A stretch of 63,915 nt of DNA, the filler included, from Stramenopiles sp. TOSAG23-6 (Eukaryota), in NCBI GenBank assembly GCA_900128565.1. It is 4 parts of 4 records of this genome, joined end to end, with 100 filler letters (N's around TTAATTAATTAA, not from the genome) between each part and the next. Parts side by side here need not be neighbours in the genome. Positions count along the whole stretch, not along the records: positions 32,655 to 48,746 come from LT636097.1; 3 more parts are not named here. One strand, given 5' to 3'. The translations under genes were made by a program, and so were the position numbers. The notes beneath the pieces are model-generated. The model was not told the origin of the DNA. It searched no databases and saw only the letters and a program-made list of their open reading frames with translations. Shown here in pieces: positions 1 to 63,915 of this stretch. Every line of letters begins with the position of its first letter. The stretch's first letter is position 1.

Positions 1-56
1 ATTTTGTACCTAACAAATTTAAGTTTTTTTTTTTGAAATATTTTTCCAAAATACAT
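1..56 (+). mobile_element. Introner-like intron, 3' part (contig-truncated), ends ...AAAATACAT
   Basis: ATTTTGTACCTAAC...TTGAAATATTTTTCCAAAATACAT matches the family; an open frame follows. Confidence 0.85.
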
Positions 57-2482
57 CTCTTTTTGAAAATTTCACTTCAAATGATACCATCGAAGATGTC
101 TTACGAGTAATTACCGCAGCTGATGAATTTAATGAAGAATTTTCAGTTCGTCGAGCGGAAAAAAGAGACATCAAAGCAATCAAAGGTAGATTCAAATTAC
201 CCAAAAAAGGTGGTATTACAAACAAAGTAAAAGTTTTACAATTAATTCAAGGAAGTCTTGAACAGAATGGTATGTATGTTTTATTTTTTTTTTTAACAAA
301 AAAATCGAATTTTTTTTCGTACGCAATTTTGTACCTAACAATTTTGTTTAGATTTTTTTTTGAAATATTTTTCCAAAATACATAGAAAATAGACTACTTA
401 AAACGCAAGCAGGAAAAATTTTGGAAACTTCATCTCGTATTCTAAAAGCTGCATTGTACTACTTGAAATCAAAAAAGAGTGCAGCAGTTCTTCAAGTGCG
501 TTTAATCTTGCGATCATTGGAAGCAAAGATGTGGGAAAATTCTGATTTCGTGTTACGTCAAATGAAAAATGTTGGAAAAGTCATGTCTAAAAAACTTCAT
601 GACGCAAATCTTAAACATTTTGCTGACCTGAATGGAATTTCTTCCTCGAGGCTAAATCTTCTTGTGGGGAAGAGTGCATCTGCTGTCTTTGGTAGTGTAC
701 GGTGTTCCACTTACATTTCATTTTTTTTTAATACCAAATTTCGTACCTAACGATTTTCGAATTTTAAATATTCTTTTATAACACGGAATCTTTTAAAACG
801 AGTAAATAATCTTCCTTGTCTTAATCTTGAAATTATTCGTGGTCTTACTAATATTCAAATGAATCTGTCCGTGAAAAAAGGTAAAAAAGATTCTGTATGT
901 TTTCAAAATTGAACGTTTTACCCATATTTTTTTCGTATATATAAAATTTCGTACCTAATGATTTTTTTGTACCGAAAAAAAAAATGATATTTTTTTACAA
1001 TACATGTGTCTTCTTACTTTACATCTATAATACTTCAAACAAAACAAAACGAAAAAATAAATCGTAGACTACTTCACTTTGGTAATTCAAGAGACAAGAT
1101 TAAAGTAGATGTACCCAAAGGCATTCATGGTGTTTTAGAAGTCAAAGTTTTACATAATACGATTATTGGCCTAGATCAAAAATGTATCGTGAAATTAGGT
1201 GGAATAAAAATCCATAGTGAAAACAACAAAAATGATAAAAAAAAACATTCAAAACAAACAAAACATCCTCGTGATATGTACGTTTACATCATTAATTTTA
1301 AATTTATTTTGTACGAAATTTTGTACCTAATGATTTTTTGTTTTTAATATTTTCATTCTATACAGTAAAACTACACCAAAACATTTTCAGAACTCGAAGA
1401 ATAAAGCGCGAAATAATTTGCCACGTAGAGTAAAGTCTTCAAAGATGAAAACGTTAGAAAACTTTGGATTTACACCGACTTCTCGAAATACAAAAAAACG
1501 AAAATTTGAAAATAGTTCTGTTCTTGATGAAAAGTCTTCATGCAATATGTCAAATAAATCTTCTTCCGCTTTTGTCTCACAGCAAAAACCACAGAATTTA
1601 TCTACTCATAAAAATGTAAAAACACCGAAACAAAAGAAACAAAAGAAACAAAAGAAACAAAAGAAACAAAAAAATGGATTTGCTCTTGCCAGAGAAAAAC
1701 AGAGAATGAATGGAAATGTAAAGGCAAAAATGAAGTTGGATTTTTCTCAACCGACAAAAATGTCTGTGCAGTCTCAACAGGCGCAATCGGATCCAATATG
1801 GTCACAACAAACACATATGTATGTTTTATTTTTTTTTTAATTTGAATTTTTTTTTTCGTACGAAATTTTGTACCAAACAATTTTTTTAGATTTTTTTTGA
1901 AATATTTTTCCAAAATACATGCAATCTTCTCAGCAACAGCCGTCATCCATATGGGAACTGCAACAACAAGCACAGGTAAACCAACAGCAAAGAAAACTTT
2001 TGAGATTCGAACGTCAAACATTTGCTCCAAAATTTCATCCTCATAACAGAATGGTATATGACAGTCGTGGCACTCAATATCANGAATCTGAACCATTCGA
2101 TTTTCGTCAGCAGCATGTGCCAACAACGTGGCAACAGCAACAGCCGCACCAAANATTTGCTCCAAAATTTCACCCTCATAGAGCAAATATNAATCAAAAC
2201 AGAATGGTATATGGCAGTCGTAGCACTCAATATCAAGAGCCATATTCATTCGGTCAAAGTCATAATGTTTCCCAAGCAGCACCAAAGACTTCTTGGCAAG
2301 AGCAGCAATTACCATATCGTGTAAAATTTCATCGTCAGAATGATAAAAGTTGTTTACAAAAGTTGCAGAAAAAAACGCAATTTTACCAAAATAATTATCA
2401 AAACAATGATGAAAACTATAAAAATGAACAACATTGTTCACAACAACAATACTATGATGATAGTAATCAGCAACAACAATGA
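57..2482 (+). CDS. HFM1: MER3/HFM1-like meiotic helicase, 3' part (Sec63 domain plus K- and Q-rich tail); 5'-truncated, multi-exon
   Basis: Exons 57-273, 384-696, 787-894, 1006-1277, 1366-1818 and 1921-2482 join in frame once the repeat-family introns are removed. The translation (LRVITAADEF..VRRAEKRDI..KVLQLIQGSL..RILKAAL..LILRSLEAKMWENSDFVLRQMKNVGKVMSKKL..FG-9x-LP) resembles the MER3/HFM1 Sec63 domain as I recall it. The helicase core lies outside the window. Confidence 0.75.
274..383 (+). mobile_element. Introner-like intron, 110 nt, GT...AT (AT/AT flanks)
   Basis: AT|GTATGTTTT...CGTACGCAATTTTGTACCTAAC...AAAATACAT|AGAA restores the frame (QNG-IENR). An in-frame canonical alternative, 270-385 (GT-AG), also exists. 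Confidence 0.8.
697..786 (+). mobile_element. Introner-like intron, 90 nt, GT...GG (diverged copy)
   Basis: GT|GTACGG...TTTCGTACCTAAC...ATAACACGG|AATCTT. It contains an in-frame stop; removal gives FGS-NLLKRVNNLP. Confidence 0.7.
895..1005 (+). mobile_element. Introner-like intron, 111 nt, GT...AT (CT/AT flanks)
   Basis: CT|GTATGTTTT...TTTCGTACCTAAT...TTACAATACAT|GTG. It contains an in-frame TGA and joins at phase 0. Confidence 0.8.
1278..1365 (+). mobile_element. Introner-like intron, 88 nt, GT...AG (canonical-ended member)
   Basis: AT|GTACGTTT...GTACGAAATTTTGTACCTAAT...CTATACAG|TAAA links the frames of ORFs 1006 and 1418. Confidence 0.85.
1627..1671 (+). repeat. 9-nt coding tandem repeat (AAACAAAAG)n encoding KQK
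   Basis: About 5 consecutive units visible. Confidence 0.8.
1819..1920 (+). mobile_element. Introner-like intron, 102 nt, GT...AT (AT/AT flanks)
   Basis: AT|GTATGTTTT...TTCGTACGAAATTTTGTACCAAAC...CCAAAATACAT|GCAA. It contains an in-frame TAA; there is no AG at the family 3' end. Confidence 0.85.
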
Positions 2483-17236: not shown

Positions 17237-17366
17237 GTTTTTGGTGTCGTGTCAATCAAACTTTTTGATTTAGACCTTGACAGTTTCATGATTCACACAT
17301 ATTATTTGAAAGATTTTTGTATCTAGCTAGAGTGTTTTTGTTGTAAACAAACAAAACTCTAGAGCA

Positions 17367-28956: not shown

Positions 28957-29123
28957 GATGAGTTAAAATTCACAATCTCGTGAGATTAGAAGGAAGATCT
29001 ATACAAATATTGATGATTTTAGAGAATGAAATTTTATTGTCTTTTTTGTCTAAAGTTTAAAAGTTAAACGTTTGTCTTTTTTTTGGCTCCTGTAAAATAA
29101 ACGTTTGAAAAAAATCTTGAAAT

Positions 29124-31571: not shown

Positions 31572-31868
31572 TGCTCTAGAGTTTTGTTTGTTTACAACAA
31601 AAACACTCTAGCTAGATACAAAAATCTTTCAAATAATATGTGTGAATCATGAAACTGTCAAGGTCTAAATCAAAAAGTTTGATTGACACGACACCAAAAA
31701 CACAAACCTGCGCGCGTTCATTTCATTTTTTTTTGGTCGCTCTCTTCGTATTCGTCTCTCTCGACCCTGAAGAGATATTTATAACTTTTAGTCATTTTGA
31801 ACTTCTTGAATCTTGATACTTAAATGCAAACCTCTTATATTCTTTGATGTATATATGTTTTTTTATCG

Positions 31869-32504
31869 ATGGTTTCTAATCTACCTGATATGACAGATGC
31901 TTGCTCGAGTGCGAATATTGTTGCATGGCCGAATTTTGCTTTTGACTTTGCCTCTTATTCTCAAGTTCTTTTCGATGAAGCACGACAGCTACTTGTACTG
32001 ATACGCAGTGGTGTATATTTTACAATACCATTATCTCAAGCTTTGTTACGATCTACTCCAAGCCTATCATCTCCACTTAATTTTGTAAGTCCTGGTCCGG
32101 TGGTTTCCGTGAATTTTTCGTATAATAAGCGATTCATTGCAGTACAACGTAGCAGTACTATTGTTGAGATTATTGATATTTTTAGCCGTACAGAACTTGA
32201 GCTAACTTGTCGTAGTAAAGATCACCGTTTTCTGCGTAACTGTGTATCTTGGTGTAAATATGCAAATAGTACTGATGCTTTATTCCTCGCAACCCAGCGT
32301 GGATTAGAAATATATCGATTGACGTCGACAAACAGAGGCACCACATGTAAGTATGTAAAAACTATAAAACACCCAGATGTCCACTTCTTTTGGTTCTGTC
32401 CTTTAGAAAATGGTAATATTTGCGAGGGTGTTATTATCTTATCAACTGGTCATCAAGGACGAGTGATGCGGCCTTATTTATTAAATTCATTCACACCTGT
32501 AAAT
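31869..32504 (+). CDS. RMC1: Duplicate copy of the RMC1 first exon
   Basis: Identical to 16434-17069. Confidence 0.7.
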
Positions 32505-32554
32505 GTATGTTTTATTTTTTTTCAAATTCTATTTTTTTTCGTACGAAATTTTGT
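32505..32554 (+). mobile_element. Introner-like intron, 5' part (contig-truncated; mirror of 16384-16433)
   Basis: AT|GTATGTTTT...TTCGTACGAAATTTTGT, then the gap. Confidence 0.85.
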
Positions 32555-32654
32555 NNNNNNNNNNNNNNNNNNNNNNNNNNNNNNNNNNNNNNNNNNNNTT
32601 AATTAATTAANNNNNNNNNNNNNNNNNNNNNNNNNNNNNNNNNNNNNNNNNNNN
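32555..32654. other. Artificial contig linker
   Basis: N44-TTAATTAATTAA-N44. Confidence 0.97.
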
Positions 32655-33095
32655 ACATCCTTTGGTATTGAACCAGATAGTTTGTTGTCTTCCAAGGACA
32701 AAGTTTCGAGATAAAAAAAACGCATTCATGAACTTGAACAACAGCTCGGTGAAGCAAACGAAATGTTTCGTGAATGTAAAGTAGAGCTTGCTGAAGAGCA
32801 ACATCGAAGAGATAGGAGATCCGTAACGAAAATCATTTTGTGGTATCCCATTCATGGTAACGTCACTCAGGTTAGGATGACTTCCGATGGATAACCCTGG
32901 ACAAAATAATTTGCTTTGAGACATTTGTGTGTCGTATTGTTGAATGTCAGCTGGATTACTTTGTACATTGTTGTTGTTTTCAGGTATTTGTTGAGGTACA
33001 CTTTGATTGCGTTGTGTAGTTTCGTTTTGTTGAGCATTTGTAAATTGAATGCACAAAAATATAAGAAAACACGAAACTATACACTGTATATACAT
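32655..33095 (-). CDS. N-terminus of a secreted Q/N-rich protein; 3'-truncated, possibly chimeric below about 32820
   Basis: Signal-like leader MYIQCIVSCFLIFLCIQFTNA; the ORF runs into the gap. Confidence 0.5.
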
Positions 33096-33741
33096 ACTTT
33101 AATGCCACGTAGAGAGAACGATATGGAAATGTTGTATAGTATGTCTTGAGTTTCACTTGTGTAAAGAGTTTTTGATTGATTTCTTATCAAAGATAAACAC
33201 AACAACACACACACTTATAGTACGAGTCTAATATAATACTGTTACATATTTTCCATTTTCTTTTCGTCGATCTTGTTGTTTTTTTTATAACGTCTTTGTA
33301 ATAATTTTTTCTTCTTCAAGAAACACGAAATCTGGAAACTTTTGTATGTACAAACCTGGTTTTACATAAATTTACAAATGGACACAATATGCCGGGCAAA
33401 TTGGTCTTATGCAAATCTTTTATAAAACAAAATTAGAGAACTTTTTAATCATTCCTAATGATAACATTTGACCACAACTTTCTCATAAAGTATATATCAT
33501 CATCATCCAAGAAAGAATATGAAATAATAATTAAATTTTGCAGTGAGAGGAACCGTCAATTATTTTCACGAAAAAACACGAAAAAACAAGAAAAATGTCA
33601 AATTTTTATACCGATCAGATGACCAAGGAACTTTACCTCAGGAACTCAGAATTTACCTCGCGTGGTATCAATACTACCATTTGTATTATTGGAAACAAAA
33701 TATACTTACACAAAATATTTTAAAATAGTATCAAAAGTATA

Positions 33742-34041
33742 ATGTGTCTTTGTGCAATGTGCGAATTAGCTTGCCTTCCACTAAAGTGTGTAAAAATGAT
33801 TCTTACGAATTCTTGCAAACTTTTTGCATTTGTATTTTTTCTTCTATTCGGCGCACTCTTCGTTATTGGATTGACAAAAAAACCAATTGATCTTGGACTG
33901 AAGGGGTTCCCGTTATATCTTATGGCTGTAATTTCAGGTGGGTTTTTTGCTTTATTGATGCTATCATGTCTGATCACAAGATGCTGCAGACCAACTACAA
34001 CTGTAGTCGTCCAAAGGACGAACCCTACGAGTATGGCTTAA
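33742..34041 (+). CDS. Small hypothetical membrane protein (2 TM helices, Cys-rich ends)
   Basis: 99-aa ORF with two hydrophobic stretches, flanked by AT-rich intergenic DNA. Confidence 0.55.
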   Translation: MCLCAMCELACLPLKCVKMILTNSCKLFAFVFFLLFGALFVIGLTKKPIDLGLKGFPLYLMAVISGGFFALLMLSCLITRCCRPTTTVVVQRTNPTSMA

Positions 34042-34260
34042 CCTTGTACAACAACTATGAATGATATAAAATAATTTTGTTTTTCTTTAATTCTTTATAC
34101 CTTATTTCCATCGTAAAAATCTAAATTAAACAGAAATATAAATGGACAAAATATATACATATAATGTAGGAAGCTATTATTTTAATTAAAAGCCGTAAAA
34201 ATAACAAAATTTCAGCGAATACTGCTTTTTTAATTGAAACGTATATAATTTGTAAAACCT

Positions 34261-35691
34261 CTAATAATACCACTGTACCTTTTTACGCTTGTGATTTGGT
34301 ACACCCAGATTAAGTTCGTATAATTTATCAATCTTTTTAGTATAAAGTTTAGCGGCTTCCTGCTCAAGACGAATACGTTCTTTTTCGTCTTCTCTTTCTT
34401 TTGCTCTTTTGACCTTTCTAGCCTCTATTTGTGCAGTTATAAATTTGCTACTTTCCAAACGCAAATCTTTTTTTCTTTGTACTTTAGCCTCAGCTTCTTT
34501 TATTTTGATTTGTGTATCTGCCAAAAGTTTTGTTGCAAAATTCATATTTTCTTCTTCTTCTTTTCTTCGTCTCTCAGCTTTCCATTTTATTTGAGATTGA
34601 CGAGACTCATCAACTTCCCTCATTAATTTAGCTCTTGCATCTGCTTCAGCCTTCCATGTTTTTTCTCGTTTATTCCAGGCTTTGTCTTCCTCATCTCGGA
34701 GCAGTTGTTCCAAATATGAATCGTCTTGTTGCTCTTTGATCATCATTTGTTTTAGCATACCCTGATAATCTTTCATCTCCTTTTTGCGAGCAGCTTTTAA
34801 ATCTTGCTCTTCTTTCTCCTTGGCTGCTTCTTTTTTTAGTACAGCATGTAAAAGTCTCAAATCTTCTGCTGCTTCTGCATCTCCTTTATGTGAATCCAGT
34901 TCTTTCTTATGTGCATTAAATATAGCTGTTTCGCGCTCGATCTCTGCTGCGTGGTCTCTTCGGGCTTGTTGTTTATCCAACTCAGCTTGGTTTTCTGCAG
35001 CCCACCTCGCACGCATTCGTGCCAATTCTTCAGCGTCTTCTTGTTCTTGACGAGCCTTTAAATAAGCCACCTCTTTCACTTGCGCGGCAAGCATTCTTTT
35101 TGTTAAATCAGAGCGTTCATCTAATACCGCCTGCTCCGCAAGTTCACGACGAAGAAGCTTCTCCTTGCGTTTCGCATACTCCTCCTCTTTCAAACGATCA
35201 GCTTGACGAACTGCTTCCTCTCGTTCTTCTTTCCACACTAACTGTTGCTTACGTTCTTGTGCCACACGTCGTGTCAACATGTTAGCTTGGTATGAACGAA
35301 TCTCGTCAACACTATCACGCCACTGAATTGCGCGCAATCGTTCTACTTCTTTCAGACGATCTGTTTCTCTCTTCTCCTGAAGACTATTAGCATGACGGAC
35401 TAGTCGTTCACGACGCTGTTCCATTGTCTCAAAGCTTGAAGCTAACTTATCAGCTAAAAACTCATTCTCAGCAGTAAGCAGTGACATTAACTCTCTACGT
35501 CTAACATTGAGCTTCCGTGCATACGCTGCTTTACGTGAAGCTAAACGTTTCTTTACCTCCAACTTCTTCATCGCTTGTCCCGTTTTATTTTCCCATACTG
35601 CATAACCCATGGCAATTTTATCTCTGTTAAAGGATGCTTTCAACTGTGTACGTCTCGCTTCGCGTTCACGCGCTGCTGCAAATCCGTGCAT
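34261..35691 (-). CDS. CFAP53: Cilia- and flagella-associated protein 53-like (trichoplein/TPH coiled coil)
   Basis: E/R/K coiled coil with RRRELMSLL.AE...ETMEQRRERL...A..L.EKRE.DR...V......WRDSVDEIR and C-terminal RKKVQWYY. Confidence 0.75.
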   Translation of the reverse strand: MHGFAAAREREARRTQLKASFNRDKIAMGYAVWENKTGQAMKKLEVKKRLASRKAAYARKLNVRRRELMSLLTAENEFLADKLASSFETMEQRRERLVRHANSLQEKRETDRLKEVERLRAIQWRDSVDEIRSYQANMLTRRVAQERKQQLVWKEEREEAVRQADRLKEEEYAKRKEKLLRRELAEQAVLDERSDLTKRMLAAQVKEVAYLKARQEQEDAEELARMRARWAAENQAELDKQQARRDHAAEIERETAIFNAHKKELDSHKGDAEAAEDLRLLHAVLKKEAAKEKEEQDLKAARKKEMKDYQGMLKQMMIKEQQDDSYLEQLLRDEEDKAWNKREKTWKAEADARAKLMREVDESRQSQIKWKAERRRKEEEENMNFATKLLADTQIKIKEAEAKVQRKKDLRLESSKFITAQIEARKVKRAKEREDEKERIRLEQEAAKLYTKKIDKLYELNLGVPNHKRKKVQWYY

Positions 35692-36055
35692 TTTACTATA
35701 TTACAGTTTTAACAATGACCAACCTCCAAAGTCTGGAAGAATCTAAAAACTCAAAAGTGTTTCAAACCCAAAGAAATACTGTAGGAGTCTGAAAATCAAG
35801 AAGATTGACGATGTAACGTTACATCGAAAATGATACAATAGAACACGAAATCCCGTTTTTTTTATGGCCATTGCAATTATTTGAGTCGATGTCGATCGAT
35901 GTCGAAGTCAAAAACTTCCTCATGGAATTAACCTTTCTTGGGACAAGCTAGTATTGCTGTTATAATATTTTTCTACGAAAACAGCGACGAATCAAGACAT
36001 TGCTTTACATCAACAACATTGATTGATTTAGATTATCTATCGGTAGTGTTTCAAT

Positions 36056-39000
36056 ATGATTCCTGTGACGCCGAATCATAGGTTGTCTTCTCATAATGAT
36101 TTTCACAGGGGTGCAGGAGGTAACGAAGAAAATCAGAACCCTAATGTGTTAGCTGCTGGAAGCGCCCGACCTAAAACTTCAGTTTTAATCGACGAAACTA
36201 TAGCTTGTGGACCCAAATCTCTACATAATGTTACTGGTCGTCGTAAAACTTTAAAAAAGGAATCCCCGCGCACGATTCATTCAAACTCTTTTGATGAAAT
36301 CGGTCCACCGTCCGGTCCGGTACCAGAAGACTCTTATTCTGATCTTACTGTGTTGACACAGACTACCACGAATACCCGTTCTCCGACTGCGTTGAAATTA
36401 ATGAAACAGATGTTAGAAGAAGAAAGATACTTAGTCGCAGAGCTTACTGTAGTTAAAATGGAATTCCTTCAACCTCTTGAACAACAGGATACATCTTGGA
36501 AACAATCGTTGTTTAGAGAAGCGGAAATGGTGCTCTTTACATCAAGTTTTGAACAAATATATCGTTTACATTCTAGATTATTGGCTGATCTCGAAGAACT
36601 TATGGGAATTTCTAACGATGGTACAGAAAACACTGACCCTATGTTTGGTGCCGTTGTTCTGAGGTATGCAAATTTATTTGAAATGTACAGAGAATATGTT
36701 TTTGCTTTAGAAACATTTCGTGCTTTTCTATGTCAAGGTGGAGGTTTCTTAAAAGATCGACCGAAAGTTCTTGAATTTTTTAGAGATTTTCGTCGGACTC
36801 AGAGAACACGCTTATTGGCGGAAGAGCAATCTGATCTGGAACGCTCAAATACTTTGAAAAAAGTATTTTCCATGCAGAATGATAAAGCGGTTGAAGCTGC
36901 TGCGAAACGTGAATTTACTGAATTGAATCGGCGCTCTGCAATGCGTGAAAAAAGTTCACGATTTTCAGCATTTGTAGGTAACAATAGAAATTATACTCTT
37001 CAACGTGATATAAAGCAGCGAAATGGGTCGTTTATGATCCAAGAAAAATCTTTATCAAACCAAATGAATAGAAGTGACATAAAACACATTTCGACACGTT
37101 CTTCAGTATCCACCGCATCCTCCACACGATCATCTACATCGTTTTCGACAAACCGAAGTATCAAATATAAAGAAAATCAAGATACTCTAGAAAAAAATCA
37201 GCAACAACTTGAAGCCAATGGTGGTGCTTTGTATATATTTTTGAAATTAAGAGTTTCAAGAGTTGGAGAATATGTAAAGATTCTTCATTCGTTATTAGTA
37301 GCAACACCAGATGTATGTTTTATTTTTTTTCAATTTCGATTTTTTTTTCGTACGAAATTTCGTACCTAACAAATTTTGTTTTTTTTTGAAATATTTTTCC
37401 AAAATACATGATCATCCAGACCGTGCTGCAATAATAAAAGCAAAAGGCGCACTAGCCACAGCTCTTGTATCTGTTCATGTACGTTTTTCAATTCAATTTT
37501 AAATGTATAATATATTACTGTTTTCCAATTCAATTTTAAATGTATAATATATTACTGTTTCTCAAAGGTGTTTTCAAAGATTTTGTACTTATTAAATCCA
37601 AATTTGATATATTTTGCCAAAATAAATGAGGCATCACAAAGTACGACAGAAAGAGATAAATTACGTGTGTTAGAGTCACAATTTTCTACTGATGTTAGTT
37701 TAATTAAAACCGGAAGACGATTGTATGTTTTATTTTTTTTAATTTCGAATTTATTTTTTTTCGTACGAAATTTTGTATTTTTTGAAATATTTTTCCAAAA
37801 TACTTAGTTTTAGCTGGTCAGTTAGAGAAGGAGTCTCGAAAACGACGTATCAAATATCATGTAGGTTTATCCATCATTAACCCTAGTAACCCTAGGTGTA
37901 TCCATCATTTTAATTTCAATTTTTTTTTCATACAAAATTGTATACCTAACAAAAACAAGTTTGAAATATTTTCCATCAATACATTTCCATTTATTCAGTG
38001 ATGTTTTGTTATATTCCTCTGGATCTGCAAAGAGTGGAGGATTTGCGTTGCATCGTGCAATGCCTCTGCTTCAAATGACCGTGAAAAATGTAGGTAACAA
38101 AAAACCATGCTCATTTCAAATTCTTGGTGCTGAAAAGTCGTTTACGTGTCATGTACGTTTTCGAAATTGAATTGTTTACCTACTTTTTTTTAGTTTGAAA
38201 ATTTTGTACCTAACAAATTTCGAAAGTAATATTTGTTTTACAATACATGCAAGTAGTGTACAAGAGAAACGACGATGGTTTCGTGCACTGAATCGTCATA
38301 TTAACGAGTGCAAAGCCGAAGCGGGTGCTGAAGGAACTGAGACAGTTGTGGCTCCAGTTTGGACGAATGATTCTTCTGGATCGAATTGTAGTTTATGCGT
38401 TGCTGAGTTTACATTTCGACGACGTCGTCATCATTGTCGTAATTGTGGAGCCTTGGTTTGCTCAAATTGTTCTCAGGACCGTCGTGTTGTCCAACACATG
38501 TACGTTTTCATCATGAATTTCTAATTTATTTTTTTTTCATACGAAATTTTGTACCTAAACAAAACAATAATGTATGAAATATTTTCCACAATATATTGAC
38601 CCTGTGGAAGCNGTAAGAGTTTGCTCACAGTGTATGAACAAAATTTCCTTAAAGGAACGGGCCATGTATAGATGGGAATTGCGTTTGATGAAAGTACAGA
38701 ATACTAACTTAAAAGGTGATCGAAGAGCATATGCTCATATTGATCTTTTACAAACGTACCCACATCATACAACAACAAGTATGTCAGTGTCGGAGGCGGA
38801 GCTTGAAGCTGGTGATTCTACCGGAAGTATACCTTCTTCTTCTAGCAGTTCTAAAGGGACTAAAGTATCAAAAAATACATCGAAAAAGATTTCAAAATCA
38901 TTACTACGTGGTGGACAATCTGTAATGGCAAAGATGTCGATGGGCTCTTCGAGACCATCTAGTAATTCATCTTCATCAAGCTCATCAACGCTATCAACAA

Positions 39001-41604
39001 TTAATTCTGTGTGGCGTGACGAGATTCATTCTTTTCCAGTAGAAGATCCATCTAAATCGGTATTGCGTGTGATGCTATGGGGTAGGAAATTCGGAAATGA
39101 TGCATTTTATGGTTTCGTCGACTTAAATTTATCAATGCTTTGTGCGGAAAGAGATAAATTAGGAGCTTCGCTTAATACGAAAATGCCTCCTCTTAAAGCA
39201 CTCAAGTCTGGTCAACCTTGGGGGATTAAGAAAAACCTCATGAAGGAGTTGGTGCTTCCACTACAGGCTAGAAATAGCGGGGATTCATCAGCCGGAGGCA
39301 CATTGACTTTACAAATGGCATTAGTTGAACCAACAGTGACATGTCCACTATCGCCTGGTTCTGTTGTAACATCATCAACCTGGATGAAGTGTGTTCGAGA
39401 TACGAAAAAGGCATTAGTTTTACATCCTTGCAGACTGATGGTCGAAACTACTGCAATGATTTGCCAGTTAGCACTTGCGGCAGCGACAATAGCTAAAGAT
39501 GCGGAACGACTATATCTAAAAAGTAATCGAATATCTAGGAAAGGTAGAAGTTCGAGAGGTTCAAGACCGTTACCTCCTCCTCCACCACCACCTGCACATA
39601 TTCCACCACCACCATTGTCTGATGATGATGACATTCCACCACCACCATTATCTGATGATGATATTTTAAATATTCCACCACCTCCTCTTTTTATGGATGA
39701 TGTATGTTTTATTTTTTTTTTTAAATTTGAATTTATTTTTTCGTACGAAATTTTGTACCTAACGAATTTTTAAAGATTTTTTTTGAAATATTTTTCCAAA
39801 ATACATGCACCTGTTGGAGGTCATAAAATTTTATCTGCTGGAGTTGATAAAATCCCACCTCCACCAAAAGATGTATTGCCCGGAACTACGACTATAAAAA
39901 AACGTAGTTGTAAAACAAGACGCAGAAAAAAAATACCGAAAAAATTAAAATTTAATCCAGATTCTATATTTTCTGCATCTGATGTAAAATCTCTTCGGCT
40001 TGCATTACATGAACTTAGTAAGCACCCCGAATTAAAAGTGATATGTACTGATGATATTGATCCGAATAAACTAACTTCTCGACAACGGGTAATACACGAG
40101 ATGTTACAAAAAGCAAGAAGTTACGACGTCGATATCCAAAAACTGAAACAATTATTTGTGGAGCCATTAGAGCAAGCAAAGGCTGGCGGGCGTCTTCATA
40201 TAGATGGTGAAAATTCCAGTAGTAACATTAGACAAAAATCTTCGCTAATTGGGGGATTTGCTAAAAGTCTGAATGCTAATCCTAAAAAGTCGAAAGATGT
40301 AAGTGAAATGTTATCAGATCCCGATCTCGCAGTTTTATTGCAGAGTATTAAAGATGCTCATACTTTAAATACTGATATGTTATCCAGACTGAAATCGGCA
40401 ACAAAGGGCTGGCCCATAGAAATTTGTGTTGCGGATATATTTACACATTTTGCCGGACTTTGTGGTCATACCTATGGTGCATTTGCAAGGTCGCATGCAA
40501 CTACTCTGGATACATTGGATTCCCCTGCATTCGCAGATTTTTTACATTCGTTTACAACCATTCTTGGAGAATCATATGAGTCGTTACTCATTAAACCTGT
40601 GCAGTGGGTGCTCCGGTTAGTTTTACTACTACATTCATTGAAAAAAGAAACTGATAAAGTCAATCAACGGAGGAAACAGGCAACCGTGACAGAAGAAGAT
40701 GTCGTAGAACATCCAGACACCCCATTTTTACCTTTAGCTATTGAAAAACTGGAGGAAGCATGTGATGAAATTAATAAATATGTCATGGTTCGTGATAGTA
40801 AAATGAAAATCATCGCATTACAAAAGACAATGTCAGGTCTTCCGAGTAATCTTAATTTATGCTCCACAAACAGGTTGTTGTTAAAACGCGGTAGACTTGT
40901 AAAACAATGTCGTCGACGTCCCAAGGATTACGTTTTTATTTTATTTGATGACTTATTGTTGTATGCCGAAGGAAGGGAAGAATCAGAAGTTGTCGGCGGT
41001 GGAGAGGACCAGGAGAAGAACAAATTGGAATATCATAGACACTTAGAATTAGTATCCGCTGCAGTAGAGGATGGACAACTCATCGAACCTGATGAAAAAG
41101 CTAAAATATTGGGGAAATGTGATGGTAGTACACCTTTTTCATTTCTTTTTAAAGCATCTGAAAAATCATGTATGTTTTCATCATTAATTTCATTTTTTTT
41201 CATAGAAATTTTTGAACCTAACAATCTTAAAATTTAAAATATTTTTTTACAACANATTTTTGTTGTATGCAAAAAATCAAAAAGAGAAAACGAGTTGGAT
41301 GAAAGCGATAAATGATGCTATCTCTAAACTTAGAGATTCCTCCCCTGAACTTGCAGATATAAATTCTAAAACAGCGGCTGTCTGGGCCGCTGATTCTAGT
41401 GGGACTCATTGTACGCTGAAAGGCTGCAATCGAGAGTTTAACCTTATATGTAGAAGACATCACTGTAGACTTTGTGGTGCACTGGTATGCGATAAGTGTT
41501 CAAAGCACAGGGAGATTCTTCCTCATATTGATTTGAAAAAAAAACAGCGTATTTGTAATATTTGTAAACCAACTTTAACAAAAGAAAGAAATTCTTCCTC
41601 ATAG
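36056..41604 (+). CDS. Tandem RhoGEF(DH)-PH-FYVE, C2, Pro-rich, RhoGEF-PH-FYVE protein (FGD-like); 9 exons
   Basis: Exons 36056-37312, 37410-37478, 37628-37722, 37806-37860, 37985-38152, 38249-38499, 38597-39701, 39807-41169 and 41258-41604 join in frame. Motifs rebuilt across junctions: TPD|DHPD, GRRL|VLAGQL, KYH|FHLFSDVLLY, SFTCH|ASSVQEKRRW, QHI|DPVEAVRVC, KSF|LLYA. There are two RRHHCR.CG..VC FYVE fingers. Confidence 0.88.
37313..37409 (+). mobile_element. Introner-like intron, 97 nt, GT...AT (AT/AT)
   Basis: GAT|GTATGT...CGTACGAAATTTCGTACCTAAC...AAAATACAT|GATCATCCAGAC. The nearest AG (37418-37419) is out of frame. Confidence 0.9.
37479..37627 (+). mobile_element. Diverged family intron, 149 nt, GT...AT, with internal 37-nt tandem duplication
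   Basis: CAT|GTACGTTTT...GCCAAAATAAAT|GAG. An in-frame AG alternative exists 3 nt downstream (37630). Duplication at 37489-37560. Confidence 0.7.
37723..37805 (+). mobile_element. Introner-like intron, 83 nt, GT...TT (TT/TT flanks)
   Basis: CGATT|GTATGT...CCAAAATACTT|AGTTTTAGCT. Both nearby AGs are out of frame; removal restores PH-domain GRRLVLAGQL. Confidence 0.88.
37861..37984 (+). mobile_element. Introner-like intron, 124 nt, GT...AT (AT/AT)
   Basis: CAT|GTAGGT...TATACCTAAC...TCAATACAT|TTCCAT restores YHFHLFSDVLLY. Confidence 0.85.
38153..38248 (+). mobile_element. Introner-like intron, 96 nt, GT...AT (AT/AT)
   Basis: CAT|GTACGT...TTTTGTACCTAAC...ACAATACAT|GCAAGT. It contains an in-frame stop; the next AGs are out of frame. 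Confidence 0.88.
38500..38596 (+). mobile_element. Introner-like intron, 97 nt, GT...AT (AT/AT)
   Basis: CACAT|GTACGT...GTACCTAAAC...ACAATATAT|TGAC gives HID, as in the second FYVE finger of the same gene. Confidence 0.85.
39702..39806 (+). mobile_element. Introner-like intron, 105 nt, GT...AT (AT/AT)
   Basis: GAT|GTATGT...CGTACGAAATTTTGTACCTAAC...CCAAAATACAT|GCA; in-frame TAA inside. Confidence 0.88.
41170..41257 (+). mobile_element. Introner-like intron, 88 nt, GT...AT (AT/AT)
   Basis: TCAT|GTATGT...GAACCTAAC...ACAACANAT|TTTTG restores PH-domain KSFLLYAKNQKEKTSW. Confidence 0.82.
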
Positions 41605-41770
41605 TGATTTGAGGAAACCATCGTATTTGTAATATTTGTAAACCAACTTTTAACGAAATAAATTAGATATTTTTATATTCCAAGGGATGCGTTAACATTT
41701 TCGTTCTCTAAGNGATATCATCCCGAAATAGTCTTTAAATATATTTTTGAATCAAAAGTATGAGACTCTA

Positions 41771-42421
41771 CTAACCCGATTTGAAAAACTGTTGTACTGC
41801 TTGTACTTCTTTGGCACAATTAGGATGGTGCTGATAAAAATTCTGAGCAAGGCCCCTAAAAGCTCTAACGTATCCGCTCTTAGAATGATATTTTCTTAAT
41901 ACTTCATCTATACGTAGTAGGGATAACTCACAGTCTCTCCTTCTTTTACCTTCTTTCAATGCATTTATATCTGGGGTGGGAGCTGGTGTTGGAGCTGGTG
42001 CTGGAGCTTTTTGGGACACTGGTGGTGCCGGTGGAGCATTTCCATACCAGAACCACGGATGATTCGTTATTGGAAATTGCGGGTTTACTGGAACATTTGG
42101 TGTCATGACTGGAACATTTGCTGTCATGACTGGAACATTTGCTGTCACTACTGGAACATTTGGTGTCATTGGTGGAGGATACATCAAATTAAGTTTTGGT
42201 ATCATTGGTTGAGGATACATCAAACCATTGCGCTGAAAAGGTAAATGACTTGGATACCCCAGTCCAACTGGACTATTTGGATACCACGGCTGACTTATTG
42301 GACCATTTGGATACCAAGATACTCTATTTTTGGTTACCATCCTTACACTTTCAATAAAAGCAAAATTTTGGCTGACTATAATCAAAGAAAGAATAAGAGT
42401 GGAAGAAATTAAGTGACTCAT
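41771..42421 (-). CDS. Secreted Pro-rich protein with 7-aa repeats (NVPVMTA/P)
   Basis: Signal peptide; 21-nt tandem repeats at about 42087-42170; PAPAPTP tract. Confidence 0.75.
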   Translation of the reverse strand: MSHLISSTLILSLIIVSQNFAFIESVRMVTKNRVSWYPNGPISQPWYPNSPVGLGYPSHLPFQRNGLMYPQPMIPKLNLMYPPPMTPNVPVVTANVPVMTANVPVMTPNVPVNPQFPITNHPWFWYGNAPPAPPVSQKAPAPAPTPAPTPDINALKEGKRRRDCELSLLRIDEVLRKYHSKSGYVRAFRGLAQNFYQHHPNCAKEVQAVQQFFKSG

Positions 42422-42802
42422 CCTTACACTTTGTCGTAAATAGTATGGTATATATAGAGAAGAAGGATACGAAAAAAGACTTTCCGAAATTTCAAATTTT
42501 CAAAAATTCAAATTTCGAAAAATTCGAAATTTCGAAATTTCAAAAAATTCAAAATTTTGATTTGTGAAAAATCGATAAAATCTTGTCGAAGACAACTGAA
42601 TGAGCTCAAGAGCATTATTAGGATAAAACCAATAAAAGAATCTTAGAAAAATTAAAATATATTCATGTTAATACTGGTTTTATTTTTTAATTTAATGCTG
42701 ATTTTTGACAATGATTTCAAACTGAATTNGAAATGTCTGGAAGATACATATACTCCAAGGTGAAGAATATGTATGATTGAAGGTGTTGTAGCGTTAGGAA
42801 TC

Positions 42803-43447
42803 TTATTCTTCTTCATCATTTTCTTCATCATTTTCTTCATTGCTTCCTTTGGAAGTTTCGGGTCTTGCTCTTCTTCTTCGTAACTTTTTCTTCTTTGACT
42901 CTGGTAATGGTCCCATAAACGACCAAGCAGGACCCATTACAGGTGGCATTACATTCATCATTGGTGGCATTACATTCATCATTGGTGGCATTACATTCAT
43001 CATTGGTGACATTGCATTCATCATTGGCGGCATTAAATTCATCATTGGCGGCATTATGTTCATCATTTGTGACATGTCTGGTGGCATCATCGATAAAGAC
43101 AACGGTGGGTGCCAAGTGAGTGACATTGGCGGAATCCACGTCGGACTTGTCTCTGGTACATTTGGCAAAGAATCATTTGGTTGATATAACATAGACGGAA
43201 ATACGGGATTACTTGGTAGAAAATCTGGAAATGTATTCATAGGGTGAGGTAAATAAGATTGAAACATTGTACCTGTCCACGGACCCATTGGACTGTAAGG
43301 TAGCATTCCGATTCCTCCAGGTAGCGTTCCAAATCCTCCAGGCATACTTGGTTGTTGAATCCCAGCATATGTCGGCTGAATCGCAGCATGTATTTGGCAA
43401 ACTTTAATTGAAAGCAAAATGTATATACATGAAATCAAGCGACTCAT
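42803..43447 (-). CDS. Secreted Met/Pro-rich protein with MNVMPPM repeats and a basic then acidic tail
   Basis: Leader MSRLISC resembles the neighbour's MSHLISS; 21-nt repeats at about 42943-43066. Confidence 0.75.
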   Translation of the reverse strand: MSRLISCIYILLSIKVCQIHAAIQPTYAGIQQPSMPGGFGTLPGGIGMLPYSPMGPWTGTMFQSYLPHPMNTFPDFLPSNPVFPSMLYQPNDSLPNVPETSPTWIPPMSLTWHPPLSLSMMPPDMSQMMNIMPPMMNLMPPMMNAMSPMMNVMPPMMNVMPPMMNVMPPVMGPAWSFMGPLPESKKKKLRRRRARPETSKGSNEENDEENDEEE

Positions 43448-43622
43448 TATACTAATACACTTTAGATGCGTTTACACAATACAACATGTGTTGGTTGAAT
43501 TATATACGCACAGAGCAAGCGAGCGAGGTGTCTTGGAATTACATTCAAATTTTCTTTAATTTGAAATTTAAATTTTAAATTGGGAAAAAAATTCTTCTTC
43601 CGGAAACTTCTTGAAAAAAAGC

Positions 43623-43632
43623 ACAAACCTGC
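43623..43632 (+). promoter_or_regulatory. Candidate promoter motif ACAAACCTGC
   Basis: About 123 nt upstream of ATG 43755, on the same strand. Confidence 0.5.
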
Positions 43633-43754
43633 TTTGACTTTGCAAAAATTAATTTAAGTCAGTCAGTTTGAAAATCCAAAATTCCGGGCCGCCCGTTATT
43701 TTGTCGTCCTTCCAGTACTACAACACACATTTGTCACCAAAACAAAAATTCAAA

Positions 43755-45893: not shown

Positions 45894-46022
45894 ATTCACA
45901 ATCTTTAGTATTATAGCGATTTGAAAAAATGCATATTTTAAAAAATGAGCAAAAATCAAAAATAAGAGTTGTACATAATAATAAAAATTACGGTTTTATA
46001 AATAAACCAACTATTTTAATTT

Positions 46023-46865: not shown

Positions 46866-47028
46866 AGTATTGTCTTCTCTCCTTGAAAAGGGATGTACAC
46901 AATATTGTACGTGCGAACAACTTCTCACACGTATAATCTACTACTGTAGTACAAGTGTCTGAAGCAATTTGAAATTTTTGAAAAATTTGAATTTTCAAAT
47001 TTTAAATTCAATCTTTTTTCAAGTACAA

Positions 47029-47038
47029 GCAGGTTTGT
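47029..47038 (-). promoter_or_regulatory. Candidate promoter motif ACAAACCTGC
   Basis: 164 nt upstream of ATG 46865, on the same strand. Confidence 0.5.
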
Positions 47039-47168
47039 TCACACGACCTTCTATTATTTTTTTATCGTGTGGGTGGTGTCTGTCGGTGGTGTTTACTCTT
47101 TTTTAAAAGTTATTTTTTCGTAATTTCTTTCGTAATTCTATAATATTTTTTTTTATTTTTTCCAAAAA

Positions 47169-48693: not shown

Positions 48694-48746
48694 ATGTATT
48701 TTGGAAAAATATTTCAAAAAAAAAATTGTTAGGTACAAAATTTCGT
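48694..48746 (-). mobile_element. Introner-like intron, 3' part (contig-truncated), ends AT
   Basis: Minus strand reads ACGAAATTTTGTACCTAAC...TTTCCAAAATACAT|GTGT. Confidence 0.85.
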
Positions 48747-48846
48747 NNNNNNNNNNNNNNNNNNNNNNNNNNNNNNNNNNNNNNNNNNNNTTAATTAATT
48801 AANNNNNNNNNNNNNNNNNNNNNNNNNNNNNNNNNNNNNNNNNNNN
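48747..48846. other. Artificial contig linker
   Basis: N44-TTAATTAATTAA-N44. Confidence 0.97.
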
Positions 48847-49043
48847 GGTGGAAGTGACTCACAACCTAGTGCTGACGGTGGTGGAAGTGACTCACAACCT
48901 AGTGCTGACGGTGGTGGAAGTGACTCACAACCTAGTGCTGACGGTGGTGGAAGTGACTCACAACCTAGTGATGGTGGTGGAAGTGACTCACAACCTAGTG
49001 GTGATGGTGGTGGAAGTGACTCACAACCTAGTGCTGACGGTGG
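48847..49043 (+). repeat. 33-nt coding minisatellite (about 6 units)
   Basis: GGTGGAAGTGACTCACAACCTAGTGCTGACGGT repeated; the contig starts within it. Confidence 0.9.
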
Positions 49044-57739: not shown

Positions 57740-59251
57740 ATGACTTTAAAGCGCTGGCGATCTCAAAGAAAAACTAGATACAACAAGTCCAATTATATCG
57801 GCAGTCCCAAAAGAAGGAGGGGAAATGATTCTCGTGGTTATCAAATTAAAGATACAAAGACAAACTCTAGTCTACACAATATGGATATTGATAGACGATA
57901 CAAAAAGGATACGAGTAGAAATAATCACACCGTACCTAAATTTAGGCTAAAAAAACGTAGTCGAGAAAAGAGAATTCCTGCACATGAATACTCTAGAGCT
58001 GCAAGAAATGTGTCAAATGACAGGTCAGTACGACGTAGGTCAACTCAAAGTCGTCGTGACTTTCAAAGGCATAAACGTTTTAGTTCTGGACATAACATTC
58101 CTCATCCTCCAGATTTAGTAGATGAAAAATCGATACCATTTCCTTCCGTAGTTCACTTGAAGGCTTCAAAGTCTGCTAGACGAAAAGTATGTTTTATTTT
58201 TTTTTCAAATTCGATTTTTTTTTCGTACGAAATTTTGTACCTAACGATTTTTTTAGAATTTTTTTTGAAATATTTTTTCACGATACAGGCGTTTGTTGAA
58301 GATTCAGAAGTAAATCGTCCCTCACTTGTAGCTGATAGATCACAGAGACATTCTTTACGTCAGGTCATGGAACAAGTTAGACACTCAATAACTCAATCTA
58401 CACCACCACCTAACAAAATTAATCGAATCATAAACTTAAAACACATTAATAATCAAGAAAATAATCAATTGTATTCACCAAGATTGAGTGAAAATAGTAA
58501 TCGACTACGAATTCAAAAGGTTAATGTTCAACTTCAAAATCTCGCACCTTCGCCAAAATTAAGTGGAAGTTCTACACATACAAAGAATGGCACACTTGTA
58601 TACACACGTTTTGATCTACTATCTGTTTTCGTTGATTACAGTAATATATTTATACCAATCAAGACAAAATATCCTAGGTGTAAATTGAATGTACAAAGAT
58701 TAGCTCGGATAGTAATGGGAAATCGACAAGCACGAACAGAAGATTCCCTTATGGTTGGTGCATCTGTTGTATCACATCCTTCATCTGCATCTCCACGGAC
58801 TCAGAGATGGATTCGAGAATGGCAAAGATGTCATTATAAAGTTCATGTTCAAAATCGATCTCGTGGGACGGGGGAAAGTTTTGTAGATGATATGATTCAT
58901 GCTCAAATGTATGTTTTATTTTTTTTCAAATTCGATTTTGTTTCGTACGAAATATTATACCTAACGATTTTTTTTGGAAATATTTTTCCAAAATACATAT
59001 ATGTTGAAATGAGAAAACATAGAGAATTGCCCGGTACACTTGCCTTGCTTACAGGTGACGGAAATCAAAATAATGAAAGAAGTAGTTTCCCAGATATTGC
59101 TCAACACGCATTAGAAGATGGTTGGTGTGTTGAGGTGTGGAGTTGGGCAAAATCAACCCACAATGTCTGGTATGCTCTCGAAAGTAAATATCGTAGAATG
59201 AAAGTGTATGCTCTTGATGATTACAAGAAACAAATTTTAACACATTTTTGA
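57740..59251 (+). CDS. NYN-domain (PIN-like RNase) protein with Arg-rich N-terminus; 3 exons
   Basis: Exons 57740-58186, 58289-58908 and 58999-59251. Motifs VFVDYSNI, ESFVDDMIHAQI, PGTLALLTGDGN and ALEDGWCVEVWSW. Confidence 0.82.
   Translation: MTLKRWRSQRKTRYNKSNYIGSPKRRRGNDSRGYQIKDTKTNSSLHNMDIDRRYKKDTSRNNHTVPKFRLKKRSREKRIPAHEYSRAARNVSNDRSVRRRSTQSRRDFQRHKRFSSGHNIPHPPDLVDEKSIPFPSVVHLKASKSARRKVCFIFFSNSIFFSYEILYLTIFLEFFLKYFFTIQAFVEDSEVNRPSLVADRSQRHSLRQVMEQVRHSITQSTPPPNKINRIINLKHINNQENNQLYSPRLSENSNRLRIQKVNVQLQNLAPSPKLSGSSTHTKNGTLVYTRFDLLSVFVDYSNIFIPIKTKYPRCKLNVQRLARIVMGNRQARTEDSLMVGASVVSHPSSASPRTQRWIREWQRCHYKVHVQNRSRGTGESFVDDMIHAQMYVLFFFKFDFVSYEILYLTIFFGNIFPKYIYVEMRKHRELPGTLALLTGDGNQNNERSSFPDIAQHALEDGWCVEVWSWAKSTHNVWYALESKYRRMKVYALDDYKKQILTHF
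58187..58288 (+). mobile_element. Introner-like intron, 102 nt, GT...AG (AA/AG flanks), in frame and stop-free
   Basis: AAA|GTATGT...CGTACGAAATTTTGTACCTAAC...CGATACAG|GCG. Confidence 0.88.
58909..58998 (+). mobile_element. Introner-like intron, 90 nt, GT...AT (AT/AT), in frame and stop-free
   Basis: CAAAT|GTATGT...CGTACGAAATATTATACCTAAC...AAAATACAT|ATAT; interrupts the NYN core. Confidence 0.88.
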
Positions 59252-62054: not shown

Positions 62055-63856
62055 TCATGTCAGTAAGTTCACCGATGAAGTATCTCCCTTGTTCTTCTTC
62101 TTTTTATCTTTCTTTTTTTTATCTTTTTTTTTCTTCTTTTCCTTCTTTGATTTTTTATCTTTCTTTTTTGTGTTGCTATTTTTACCACTATTATCATCAT
62201 GTTTTGGAGCTGTCTGTGTTGAATCAGTTCCAATACCTATCAAATTATCTAAATCATTCATTTCCCATGCAGATTCATTTTCAGTTTGCTTTGAAACATC
62301 CTTATTATTGTCATCATCATCCATAAAATCATCTAGAAAATTCGTGCTCTTCGAATCATTTTGTATGGAAGTAGTATTTATATCAAGTATATTGTTGTTA
62401 CTTTCATTCGAATCGTTTTTTACTTTTCTTTTTTTCTTCTTGTCCTTTTTTTTATTCTTTTTCTTTTTTCGAGACATGTTTGACTCATTTTTTTCATCTG
62501 GTATTTCTTTGGTTTTTCGATGACTCAAAGTCGGTATAACTTCATCCGCGTGTAATGGAACAGTTACATCAATATCAGCAAGACCTAGATCAGATTCATT
62601 ATTCTTTTTATCATTTGTGTCTACTTCCGAAACGTCATCAGAATCATCAGCTCCATCAGGTAGCTCTTCTTCATCCATAACAACATATTTTATCTTTGAT
62701 CGTTTATTTTTTTTATGACGACTTGTACTATTACTTTGTAAGTCTGACTTTCGTAACATTCGTATAGGAATTTTATCAACATCAAATGTATCAGAATTTT
62801 CATTATTATCTTCATTCGTTTTCTTCGAAGGCGAGTCTAAGTAATATGGATCATTTGCTTTTTTTACCATAGCTTTCATTTGTTTACGTTCATGTATTGT
62901 AAAAAAAATTAAATTCGAAATTTGTTAGGTACAAAATTTCGTACGAAAAAATAAATTTGAAATTCATAATGAAAACGTTCTCTTCTCTCAATACGACGAA
63001 GTTCTTTTGCTGATAACTTTTTTTTATCACTTTTACTCATTTGACCAATTTTACGTAATTCCATTTCATTTAATGCAGACGCTTCAACAGAAGCAATTAA
63101 TTCAATTTCTCCTTCGGAATGGTCTGATTCTTCTTCACTGGAATGAGTACCATCACTTTTGATAGAACAAAACTTCAAATCCGTAAACCAACGATTTGAC
63201 GCATTTTGAGAATTTTCTTTACTGACTTCCAATAGTTGTCGTGATTTTGGATCAATCCATTTTTCAAGATCTAGACCTTCAGGAATAGGGACTTTTTTCT
63301 GTGCTTTTGTTGATACAGCAGATAATTTTTTCTTATGTACACCATTCAAAGTAGATAATAAAGCAGAATGAGAAGAAGCTCCATCTTCTGAGAGTATTTC
63401 CATCAAACGAGTGAGAGATTCAACACGATCTGAGACTTCTATGTATGTTGAATTCTGCCAATTTGATAATTTTGCAATGCATAAAGCAACAATTGAATCT
63501 AAACATACAACTTTATCATTGTTTACATCATTGTCGTTTTCATTATTTTCATCATAATCAGTACTAGAGGGTAATCCATCACCTGCAGATCCAGCAACTG
63601 AGACAAATATCTTTAGTATAGCTTGTATATAGAAACTTTGAGTCTTCTCAGAAAGCTTTTCGGGTGAAGCACAAAGTAAAGATCCTAAGACACTTTCCGG
63701 ATGTTCAATGTATTCAGCATACTCTCCTACAATCCATGCACATGCGTATAGTACTTTATTTGTGCTACAACCTCTTGAAAGTAAAGAAATATCTGATAAT
63801 AAAGGAATCATACTTTTACATGCAAATTGTCGAACTACAGGAACACGTAATGATAC
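62055..63856 (-). CDS. AP3D1: AP-3 complex subunit delta, 3' part (exons 63856-62981 and 62891-62055)
   Basis: VSLRVPVVRQFA, VLYACAWIVGEYA, STYIEVSDR, VSTKAQKKVPIPEGLDLEKWI, NDPYYL; K-rich tail. Confidence 0.9.
62892..62980 (-). mobile_element. Introner-like intron, 89 nt, GA...AT by family alignment
   Basis: Minus strand AGA|GAACGTTTTCATT...CGTACGAAATTTTGTACCTAAC...ACAATACAT|GAACGT joins the two AP3D ORFs at phase 0. Confidence 0.8.
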
Positions 63857-63915
63857 ATGTATTTTGGAAAAATATTTCAAAAAAAAATCTAAAAAAAATT
63901 GTTAGGTACAAAATT
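63857..63915 (-). mobile_element. Introner-like intron, 3' part (truncated), ends AT
   Basis: Minus strand reads AATTTTGTACCTAAC...TTTCCAAAATACAT|GTATCATTACGT. Confidence 0.85.

Follow-up and report, generated by a model that had tools for sequence, protein, structure and literature searches.

A probable introner family predicted to be spliced without an AG acceptor in the stramenopile TOSAG23-6

Introners, also called introner elements, were reportedly described from marine protists (Micromonas, Aureococcus and others) by Huff et al. in 2016. No other source of intron gain on a large scale is better supported. The sections on introners in PMC11282704, PMC9860276 and PMC12130899 describe families with target-site duplications (TSDs) and terminal inverted repeats (TIRs), and one of these surveys (Gozashti et al. 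2022, PMC9860276) reports in its main text that, of 175 genomes, 161 have introners enriched in genes. The introner elements of Amoebophrya are presented by Farhat et al. (2021, PMC7789003) as having inverted repeats of 8-20 nt that form hairpins and direct repeats of 3-5 nt; the passages on splicing in the same report describe highly variable intron borders and state that U1 small nuclear RNA was not detected. Non-canonical introns of Fritillaria, derived from miniature transposable elements with inverted repeats (MITEs), are covered in part by PMC11282704 and PMC13326754 after Henriet et al. (2019), and by Soo et al. (2026); the YAY repeat found there is taken to be a TSD giving rise to the 3′ site. 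The present analysis concerns a stretch of 63,915 nucleotides (the window) from the assembly GCA_900128565.1 of Stramenopiles sp. TOSAG23-6, in which a short element recurs inside several genes and behaves in silico as an intron.

The element would best be explained as a family of short, mobile and non-autonomous elements in high copy number, every one being a spliceosomal intron, that is, an introner. Each element would supply a GTAYGT 5′ splice site, a branch-like box, a T-rich tract and a conserved 3′ end. Insertion would occur mostly at AT and duplicate a 2-nt target, and the spliceosome would excise the element with one copy of the dinucleotide and without an AG acceptor. The intron could be read either as GT...AT or as AT...AC with the same mRNA, and since the element leaves together with one dinucleotide copy, the mRNA would be returned to its pre-insertion sequence. 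We regard such a mobile intron family, with a 2-nt TSD and spliced without AG, as probable, with a good measure of doubt attached. A preliminary description of the window had proposed introners with a TSD and TIRs; the introner part of that reading holds, while both the TSD and the TIRs were overstated.

Copies were collected with an nhmmer profile, built from seven clear copies, and by parsing the window by hand. Sixteen complete and four partial copies (cut by contig or window ends) lie in at least six open reading frame (ORF) contexts, and this repeated interruption of unrelated genes upholds the proposal that the element is an intron. The partial copy at 32505-32554, mirrored at 16384-16433 by a perfect inverted repeat, was counted once. 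Complete elements measure 81-147 nt. Seven core copies, found in at least three unrelated genes, have a mean identity of 94% (range 91-100%) in aligned columns, and the nine further complete copies have the same three conserved blocks. The first block, at the 5′ end, is GTAYGTTT, its positions 1-2 being GT in 15 of 16 copies; the second is the branch-like box TTTGTACCTAAC, present in 15 of 16 copies at 33-47 nt before the intron end, whose motif has 18 matches in the window against 5.5 expected; the third, at the 3′ end, is ..(A/C)AATAC, i.e. ..AAAATAC or ..ACAATAC, with 13 of 16 elements ending in AC. The element also carries a T-rich tract and, at its centre, the palindrome TTTCGTACGAAA (12 nt, at most one mismatch), which had been noted earlier and occurs 13 times against 0.29 expected, a number reached in 0 of 100 shuffles. 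The shortest copy (37723-37803, 81 nt) reads GTATGTTTT...TTTCGTACGAAA...CCAAAATAC and has TT at either side. The copies are listed below, flanks being given as upstream/downstream dinucleotides.

37721..37722, plus strand: upstream flank TT, which opens the Leu codon TTA of the frame after splicing
37723..37803, plus strand: internally deleted core copy of 81 nt; identity of 100% with copies 1819 and 39702 in 78 aligned columns
37804..37805, plus strand: downstream flank TT, removed with the element unless the upstream TT is removed; the mRNA is identical
274..381, plus strand: core copy in the Sec63/HFM1-like gene; flanks AT/AT; Sec63 profile gap-free across the junction
697..784, plus strand: degenerate copy; flanks GT/GG; removal of the element and 2 nt gives the 9-residue FG..LP spacing of 9/9 homologues
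895..1003, plus strand: degenerate copy; flanks CT/AT
1278..1363, plus strand: degenerate copy; flanks AT/AG; reads as GT..AG
1819..1918, plus strand: core copy; flanks AT/AT
37313..37407, plus strand: core copy in the RhoGEF-PH-FYVE gene; flanks AT/AT
37479..37625, plus strand: degenerate copy with an internal tandem duplication; end ..AATAA; flanks AT/AT
37861..37982, plus strand: degenerate copy; flanks AT/AT
38153..38246, plus strand: degenerate copy; flanks AT/AT; gap-free against the paralogous module, which is intronless at this site
38500..38594, plus strand: degenerate copy in the FYVE finger; end ..AATAT; flanks AT/AT; paralogue CAT ATT GAT with a single AT, gap-free
39702..39804, plus strand: core copy; flanks AT/AT
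41170..41255, plus strand: degenerate copy in the second PH module; flanks AT/AT
58187..58286, plus strand: core copy whose 3′ end has diverged; flanks AA/AG; reads as GT..AG
58909..58996, plus strand: core copy; flanks AT/AT
62894..62980, minus strand: degenerate copy in an adaptin-like gene; starts GAACGT; flanks GA/AT; GAACGT again just after the 3′ end
1..54, plus strand: partial copy, 3′ part, cut by the window start; then AT
48696..48746, minus strand: partial copy, 3′ part, cut by the contig end; then AT
63859..63915, minus strand: partial copy, 3′ part, cut by the window end; then AT
32505..32554, plus strand: partial copy, 5′ part, cut by the contig end; AT before the copy

All 20 copies, complete and partial, are in sense orientation relative to the ORF that they interrupt, as had been reported, and all lie within the ~71% of the sequence covered by long ORFs, with none in the remaining ~29%. 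In a seawater DNA run, the summed contig depth is ~58,000 over a copy against ~8.5 in its flanks, a figure that is not a copy number. The longest copy (37479-37625) owes its 147 nt to the tandem duplication inside it, which spans ~40 nt. A central fragment of the element (T-run, TTTCGTACGAAATTTTGTA) lies at 49804-49869 on the plus strand, just past the stop codon of the ORF at 48847-49824, and is the sole piece seen outside coding sequence.

Evidence for intron function comes from reading frames. Flanks were joined after deleting the element plus k bases in 14 copies; deletion of the element plus 2 nt left an open frame in 14/14, and the remaining two copies also fit, which gives 16/16. For the copy flanked by TT, analyzed with 90-nt flanks, removal of 83 nt (k = 2) is the only open choice among k = 0-3. 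An intron consisting of the element alone was rejected, as stops or a wrong frame result. At the scale of whole genes, module A of the RhoGEF-PH-FYVE gene, spliced at six introns by this rule, reads through 1003 amino acids with no stop, and module B, spliced at intron 41170, is open for ~570 amino acids to the first stop; the junction at copy 39702, which links the two modules, is open only when the element and 2 nt are taken out. Spliced at five introns, the Sec63-type gene has terminal stops only.

The removed length is exactly confirmed at five junctions by the spacing of homologues or paralogues. At junction 274, the Sec63 Pfam match stops at profile position 87, four residues before the junction, and picks up again at position 97, four residues beyond the junction; nine residues fill the nine profile positions in between, and the length equals that of five of nine distant homologues in a MAFFT alignment. 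The FG..LP spacing at junction 697 (nine residues) is the same as in all nine distant homologues, again by MAFFT, while junctions 38153, 38500 and 41170 lie in gap-free alignments between the paralogous PH-FYVE modules. Read in this way from the sequence, the elements are introns, predicted to be excised as the element plus 2 nt. The preliminary description had one flank copy removed whatever its sequence: the removal agrees with the frames of all 16 copies and with the five exact junctions, and for its independence from the flank sequence, which the reading frames suggest, these frames are the evidence.

The absence of an AG acceptor, proposed from the outset, is borne out by the copies that offer one. 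Six copies contain an internal AG 9-12 nt downstream of the branch-like box; use of any of these would retain 22-32 nt, a multiple of three in none of the six, and since all six would shift the frame, the AG is not the acceptor and was rejected as such. The GT...AT and AT...AC registers yield an identical mRNA whenever the flanks are equal. In favor of a GT...NN register, GTAYGT is a perfect U1/U6-type site and AG stands at the downstream flank in two copies; in favor of NN...AC, 13 of 16 elements end in AC, and A and C as the first and last intron bases are described as isosteric to G-G in PMC13326754. Both the U2-type splicing and any choice between the two registers are points that we infer. 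It is conceivable, though we put it forward only tentatively, that one splice cut is set by position, fixed 2 nt past ..ATAC or before GTAYGT, and not by the identity of the dinucleotide, and that nearly all introns of this genome stem from one element superfamily. With such a positional cut, AT, AG, TT and GG would all be accepted and AGs nearer the branch box would be skipped.

A gain of introns may be recorded in the RhoGEF-PH-FYVE frame (36047-41646, plus strand), which is made of two tandem paralogous modules whose PH-FYVE parts align with a BLOSUM62 local score of 241. In these parts, module A has four introns and module B one, and none of the five positions is common to both. The intron-free paralogous sites read CAT ATT GAT and TAT GCA, each with a single AT.

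The flanking dinucleotides bear on how the elements arrived. Among the 16 complete copies, AT/AT occurs ten times and TT/TT, AA/AG, AT/AG, CT/AT, GT/GG and GA/AT once each. The count of 11 equal pairs in 16 given in the preliminary description, including TT/TT at 37721-37805, was thus reproduced with exact coordinates; the background chance of an equal pair is ~0.07 from the dinucleotides of the window. When the observed flanks were re-paired at random, which is the fairer null, a mean of 8.3 equal pairs was obtained against the 11 observed (P = 0.012). Under the same null, the first flank base is equal in 14 of 16 copies where the mean is 10.7 (P = 0.008), while equality of the second base (12 of 16) is not significant. 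Locus-specific matches of the first base are T..T at copy 37723 and G..G at copy 697. Equal flanks are found in all six least-diverged core copies, and unequal flanks sit in diverged copies. Over 78 columns aligned with copies 1819 and 39702, the TT/TT copy is free of substitutions; as it is 100% identical to both, a private later A-to-T change at its 3′ flank is improbable (our estimate is 0.013 or less). It had been called decisive, which a single copy is not on its own.

Since AT is its own reverse complement, AT/AT flanks cannot separate a TSD from a terminal inverted repeat or from an AT built into the 3′ end of the element; the relevant part of Gozashti et al. (2022, PMC9860276) describes the same ambiguity for AG flanks. 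One version, an ATGTAT/ATACAT inverted repeat with both ATs belonging to the element, is excluded because two extra bases would stay in the mRNA and shift the frame. The minimal number of changes needed to account for the six copies that are not AT/AT is six with a TSD, five with a built-in 3′ AT and six with a built-in 5′ AT. The TSD is favored because of the shuffle tests, the locus-specific T..T and G..G matches and the complete identity of the TT/TT copy, and we infer transposition at the DNA level with a 2-nt duplication. The TSD of the preliminary description is kept in this weaker form: the shuffle result and the two locus-specific matches speak for it, while the AT/AT copies are ambiguous and five of the six others have unequal flanks.

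Several observations weigh against a transposed, TSD-generating and spliced element. Among the copies with a non-AT flank on either side, a full match is found in one of six, and the built-in 3′ AT model requires no more changes than the TSD model. That all 20 copies sit in genes would not be expected of a DNA transposon without some tie of insertion or retention to genes, and no copy was found outside a gene or in antisense in the window. No transposase-type Pfam domain was detected in the 26 ORFs scanned, of 41 ORFs of at least 150 amino acids listed, in keeping with the earlier statement that the window lacks a transposase, and no longer element was found in the same 26 ORFs. Scans of public metagenome, viral and prokaryote contigs yielded no orthologous or allelic empty site. 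At the RNA level, three metatranscriptome runs were searched on 32655-48746, for which the RNA contigs listed are 181-448 nt long: none of the copies is bridged by an RNA contig, and no right-sized joint for a copy is present among the joints listed. The TT/TT copy (37723-37803) lacks the branch-like TACCTAAC box through its internal deletion, and because of this absence its own splicing is a prediction. The inverted ends, GTAT(G)TTTT against AAAATAC, with six perfect base pairs (ATGTAT/ATACAT) when the AT flanks are counted, are real, as had been claimed; they are also only 7-9 nt long and coincide with the splice signals. RNA folds are weak, with z-scores of -0.2 to -2.8 and a terminal helix of 4-6 base pairs in three of seven minimum-energy folds. 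The sense strand is 54.5% T and both halves of the element are T-rich, so that it cannot fold back on itself; a foldback or hairpin structure was rejected on the weakness of the folds.

A rival reading has the same mobile intron family without a TSD, the element being GT...ATACAT or ATGT...ATAC and landing precisely beside an existing AT. One way for this to happen would be that the excised intron reverse-splices into a transcript at an AT| site that it prefers, and is then reverse-transcribed and recombined. The reading without a TSD has the placement of 20/20 copies in genes and in sense on its side, with none in the ~29% without long ORFs; the CT/AT and GA/AT copies need no change under it, and the total of five changes is lower than the six for a TSD. 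In the discussion of such cases in PMC9860276, the ambiguity is recognized for flanks common to all copies, and fungal introners with neither TSD nor TIR are said to have been read as RNA-based. Against it, the TT/TT copy, identical to two others over its 78 columns, would require a private A-to-T change agreeing by coincidence with the base upstream; G..G at copy 697 and the shuffle test as a whole (P ~0.01) also speak against it. Sense-only placement in genes is, moreover, usual for DNA-based introners too, to judge from the gene enrichment in 161/175 genomes cited above. We hold the reading without a TSD to be unlikely but far from negligible, and retain the mobile family with a 2-nt duplication.

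Ordinary non-mobile introns, resembling one another through strict splice signals (GTAYGT, TACCTAAC, T-tract, ATAC-AT) and gene duplication, are very improbable. The blocks common to all 16 copies are indeed the presumed splice signals, and the RhoGEF-PH-FYVE gene does contain a tandem duplication; however, the core copies are 91-100% identical over their full length, including the non-signal palindrome TTTCGTACGAAA, in unrelated genes, the duplicated modules have no common intron positions, contigs break in copies, and contig depth over a copy exceeds that of the flanks by orders of magnitude. This rival is close to refuted. An artefact of single-cell amplification or assembly, in which chimeric joins put a repeat into ORFs, is scarcely credible: a perfect 6,840-nt inverted repeat does end in a copy at both contig ends and artificial linkers join the contigs, but independent seawater DNA contigs cross copy 38500-38594 into neighboring copies with their flanks, and exact frame restoration in 16/16 copies is not expected of chimeras.

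Searches of public collections returned little of the family or its genes. The full-length element pattern has 0 matches in metagenome contigs. The central motif hits 20 metagenome loci, and a single one of these has a partial copy and none a complete one; scans of viral contigs and of prokaryote genome contigs for the element gave chance matches or none. The partial copy occupies positions 1-170 of a public contig (L001) and comprises the 5′ two-thirds of the element preceded by AT; it follows an ORF resembling a family-B DNA polymerase motif, and as the remainder looks unrelated the contig may be a chimera. On the protein side, no gene model across the junctions was found in protein collections for exon 36047-37312, no protein above 39% identity at any length for exon 385-696, and only an ORF of a 1,555-nt genomic contig for exon 38598-39701. 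The Sec63-type and RhoGEF-PH-FYVE genes were not found as gene models in these collections, and an intron-free neighbor in the same assembly does have one. If nearly all introns of the genome came from this superfamily, this would explain why intron-bearing genes are missing from protein sets.

The window consists of four contigs joined by artificial N44-TTAATTAATTAA-N44 linkers at 16284-16383, 32555-32654 and 48747-48846. Of the eight contig ends, five fall within a copy of the element, so that the family limits the contiguity of the assembly. A perfect (100%) inverted repeat of 6,840 nt (16384-23223 against 25715-32554, with a spacer of 2,491 nt) fills one whole contig, and both of its outer ends terminate in the same element copy; it has the look of a chimera from amplification or of a fold-back in the assembly, and not of biology. 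The SAE1-like ORF (60901-61926, plus strand) equals, apart from an 11-residue gap, a EukProt protein labelled GSMAST32, and its next-best matches are from oomycetes and ochrophytes at ~40% identity; this match and these runners-up indicate a host of the marine stramenopile (MAST) kind, an assignment based on the label. The public gene model for this protein (P0001) omits 11 residues (33 nt) of an ORF that is open throughout, probably as a spurious small intron. The ORFs of the window include A2M, HECT and SHIPPO domains, and exons are long. Together with the introns ending in AT, these features could suggest a larvacean tunicate, an origin that was rejected on the SAE1-like matches; the host is not an animal. 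Introns are strongly clustered: eight lie in the 5.6-kb RhoGEF-PH-FYVE gene (36047-41646, plus strand) and at least six in the 2.5-kb Sec63-type gene (1-2482, plus strand), with none in the 13.6-kb HECT ORF (2671-16335, minus strand) or in the 5-kb alpha-2-macroglobulin-type ORF (52411-57447, minus strand).

Neither MAST lineages nor stramenopiles are mentioned in the main text of the introner surveys PMC9860276 and PMC12130899, although a MAST entry could still stand in the family lists of their supplements. Searches for papers on introners of MAST lineages found none, and two papers on MAST single-cell genomes, with 2 and 0 uses of the word 'intron', describe no intron family. Introns with non-AG borders show the limits to which the spliceosome can be pushed, and in this family a 5′ site that is perfectly canonical goes with a 3′ border other than AG, while a few copies have unequal flanks; RNA reads across these copies could reveal which cut is displaced. 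Gene finders based on GT..AG would break or miss genes with such introns.

Among known systems, U12-type AT-AC introns have an ATATCC-type 5′ site and a branch site near the 3′ end. In the AT...AC register, the present introns share their first and last bases, A and C; unlike them, they begin with ATGTATGT, i.e. (AT)GTAYGT, and have the box 33-47 nt from the end, and the conservation of GTAYGT two bases in points to U1/U6 recognition. MITEs of the Stowaway or Tc1-mariner type have a TA duplication and TIRs of at least 10 base pairs; here, whichever register keeps the frame, the flanks are AT and not TA, with a TIR of 7-9 nt. Nonconventional introns of euglenids, as outlined in the corresponding section of PMC11282704, have no pyrimidine tract and pair their ends via internal CAG/CTG-type repeats, in contrast to the 54.5% T, long T runs, GTAYGT start and weak terminal pairing found here.

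Closer likenesses exist with Amoebophrya, for which the published account gives introns that are repeated and have borders other than GT/AG, with direct repeats that overlap the boundaries between exon and intron, TIRs and no internal transposase; the present family would match in these points, its direct repeats and TIRs being putative, and the differences are the short inverted ends (7-9 nt), the weak folds, the textbook GTAYGT and the nearly uniform borders of the present family. With Fritillaria, as far as the sources cited above describe it, the family shares 3′ ends in AT or AC instead of AG and a short motif, YAY in Fritillaria and AT in this family, that stands both ahead of the 5′ site and at the 3′ end; removal is by a U2-type spliceosome in Fritillaria, as it would be here. 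The host is a chordate there and a stramenopile here, and 5′ sites in F. borealis are mostly AG.. with G-rich starts, against GTAYGT in this family. The likeness is greatest with introners in general, which the surveys portray as near-identical short non-autonomous elements, each one an intron, enriched in genes and leaving mRNA length unchanged, with one splice site in the element and the other possibly supplied by the duplicated target. Described families are, in the main texts, mostly GY..AG with TSDs of 3-9 base pairs, whereas this family has a putative duplication of 2 nt, in most cases AT, and an acceptor other than AG. The case is a further example of transposon-like introner introns, not a new kind.

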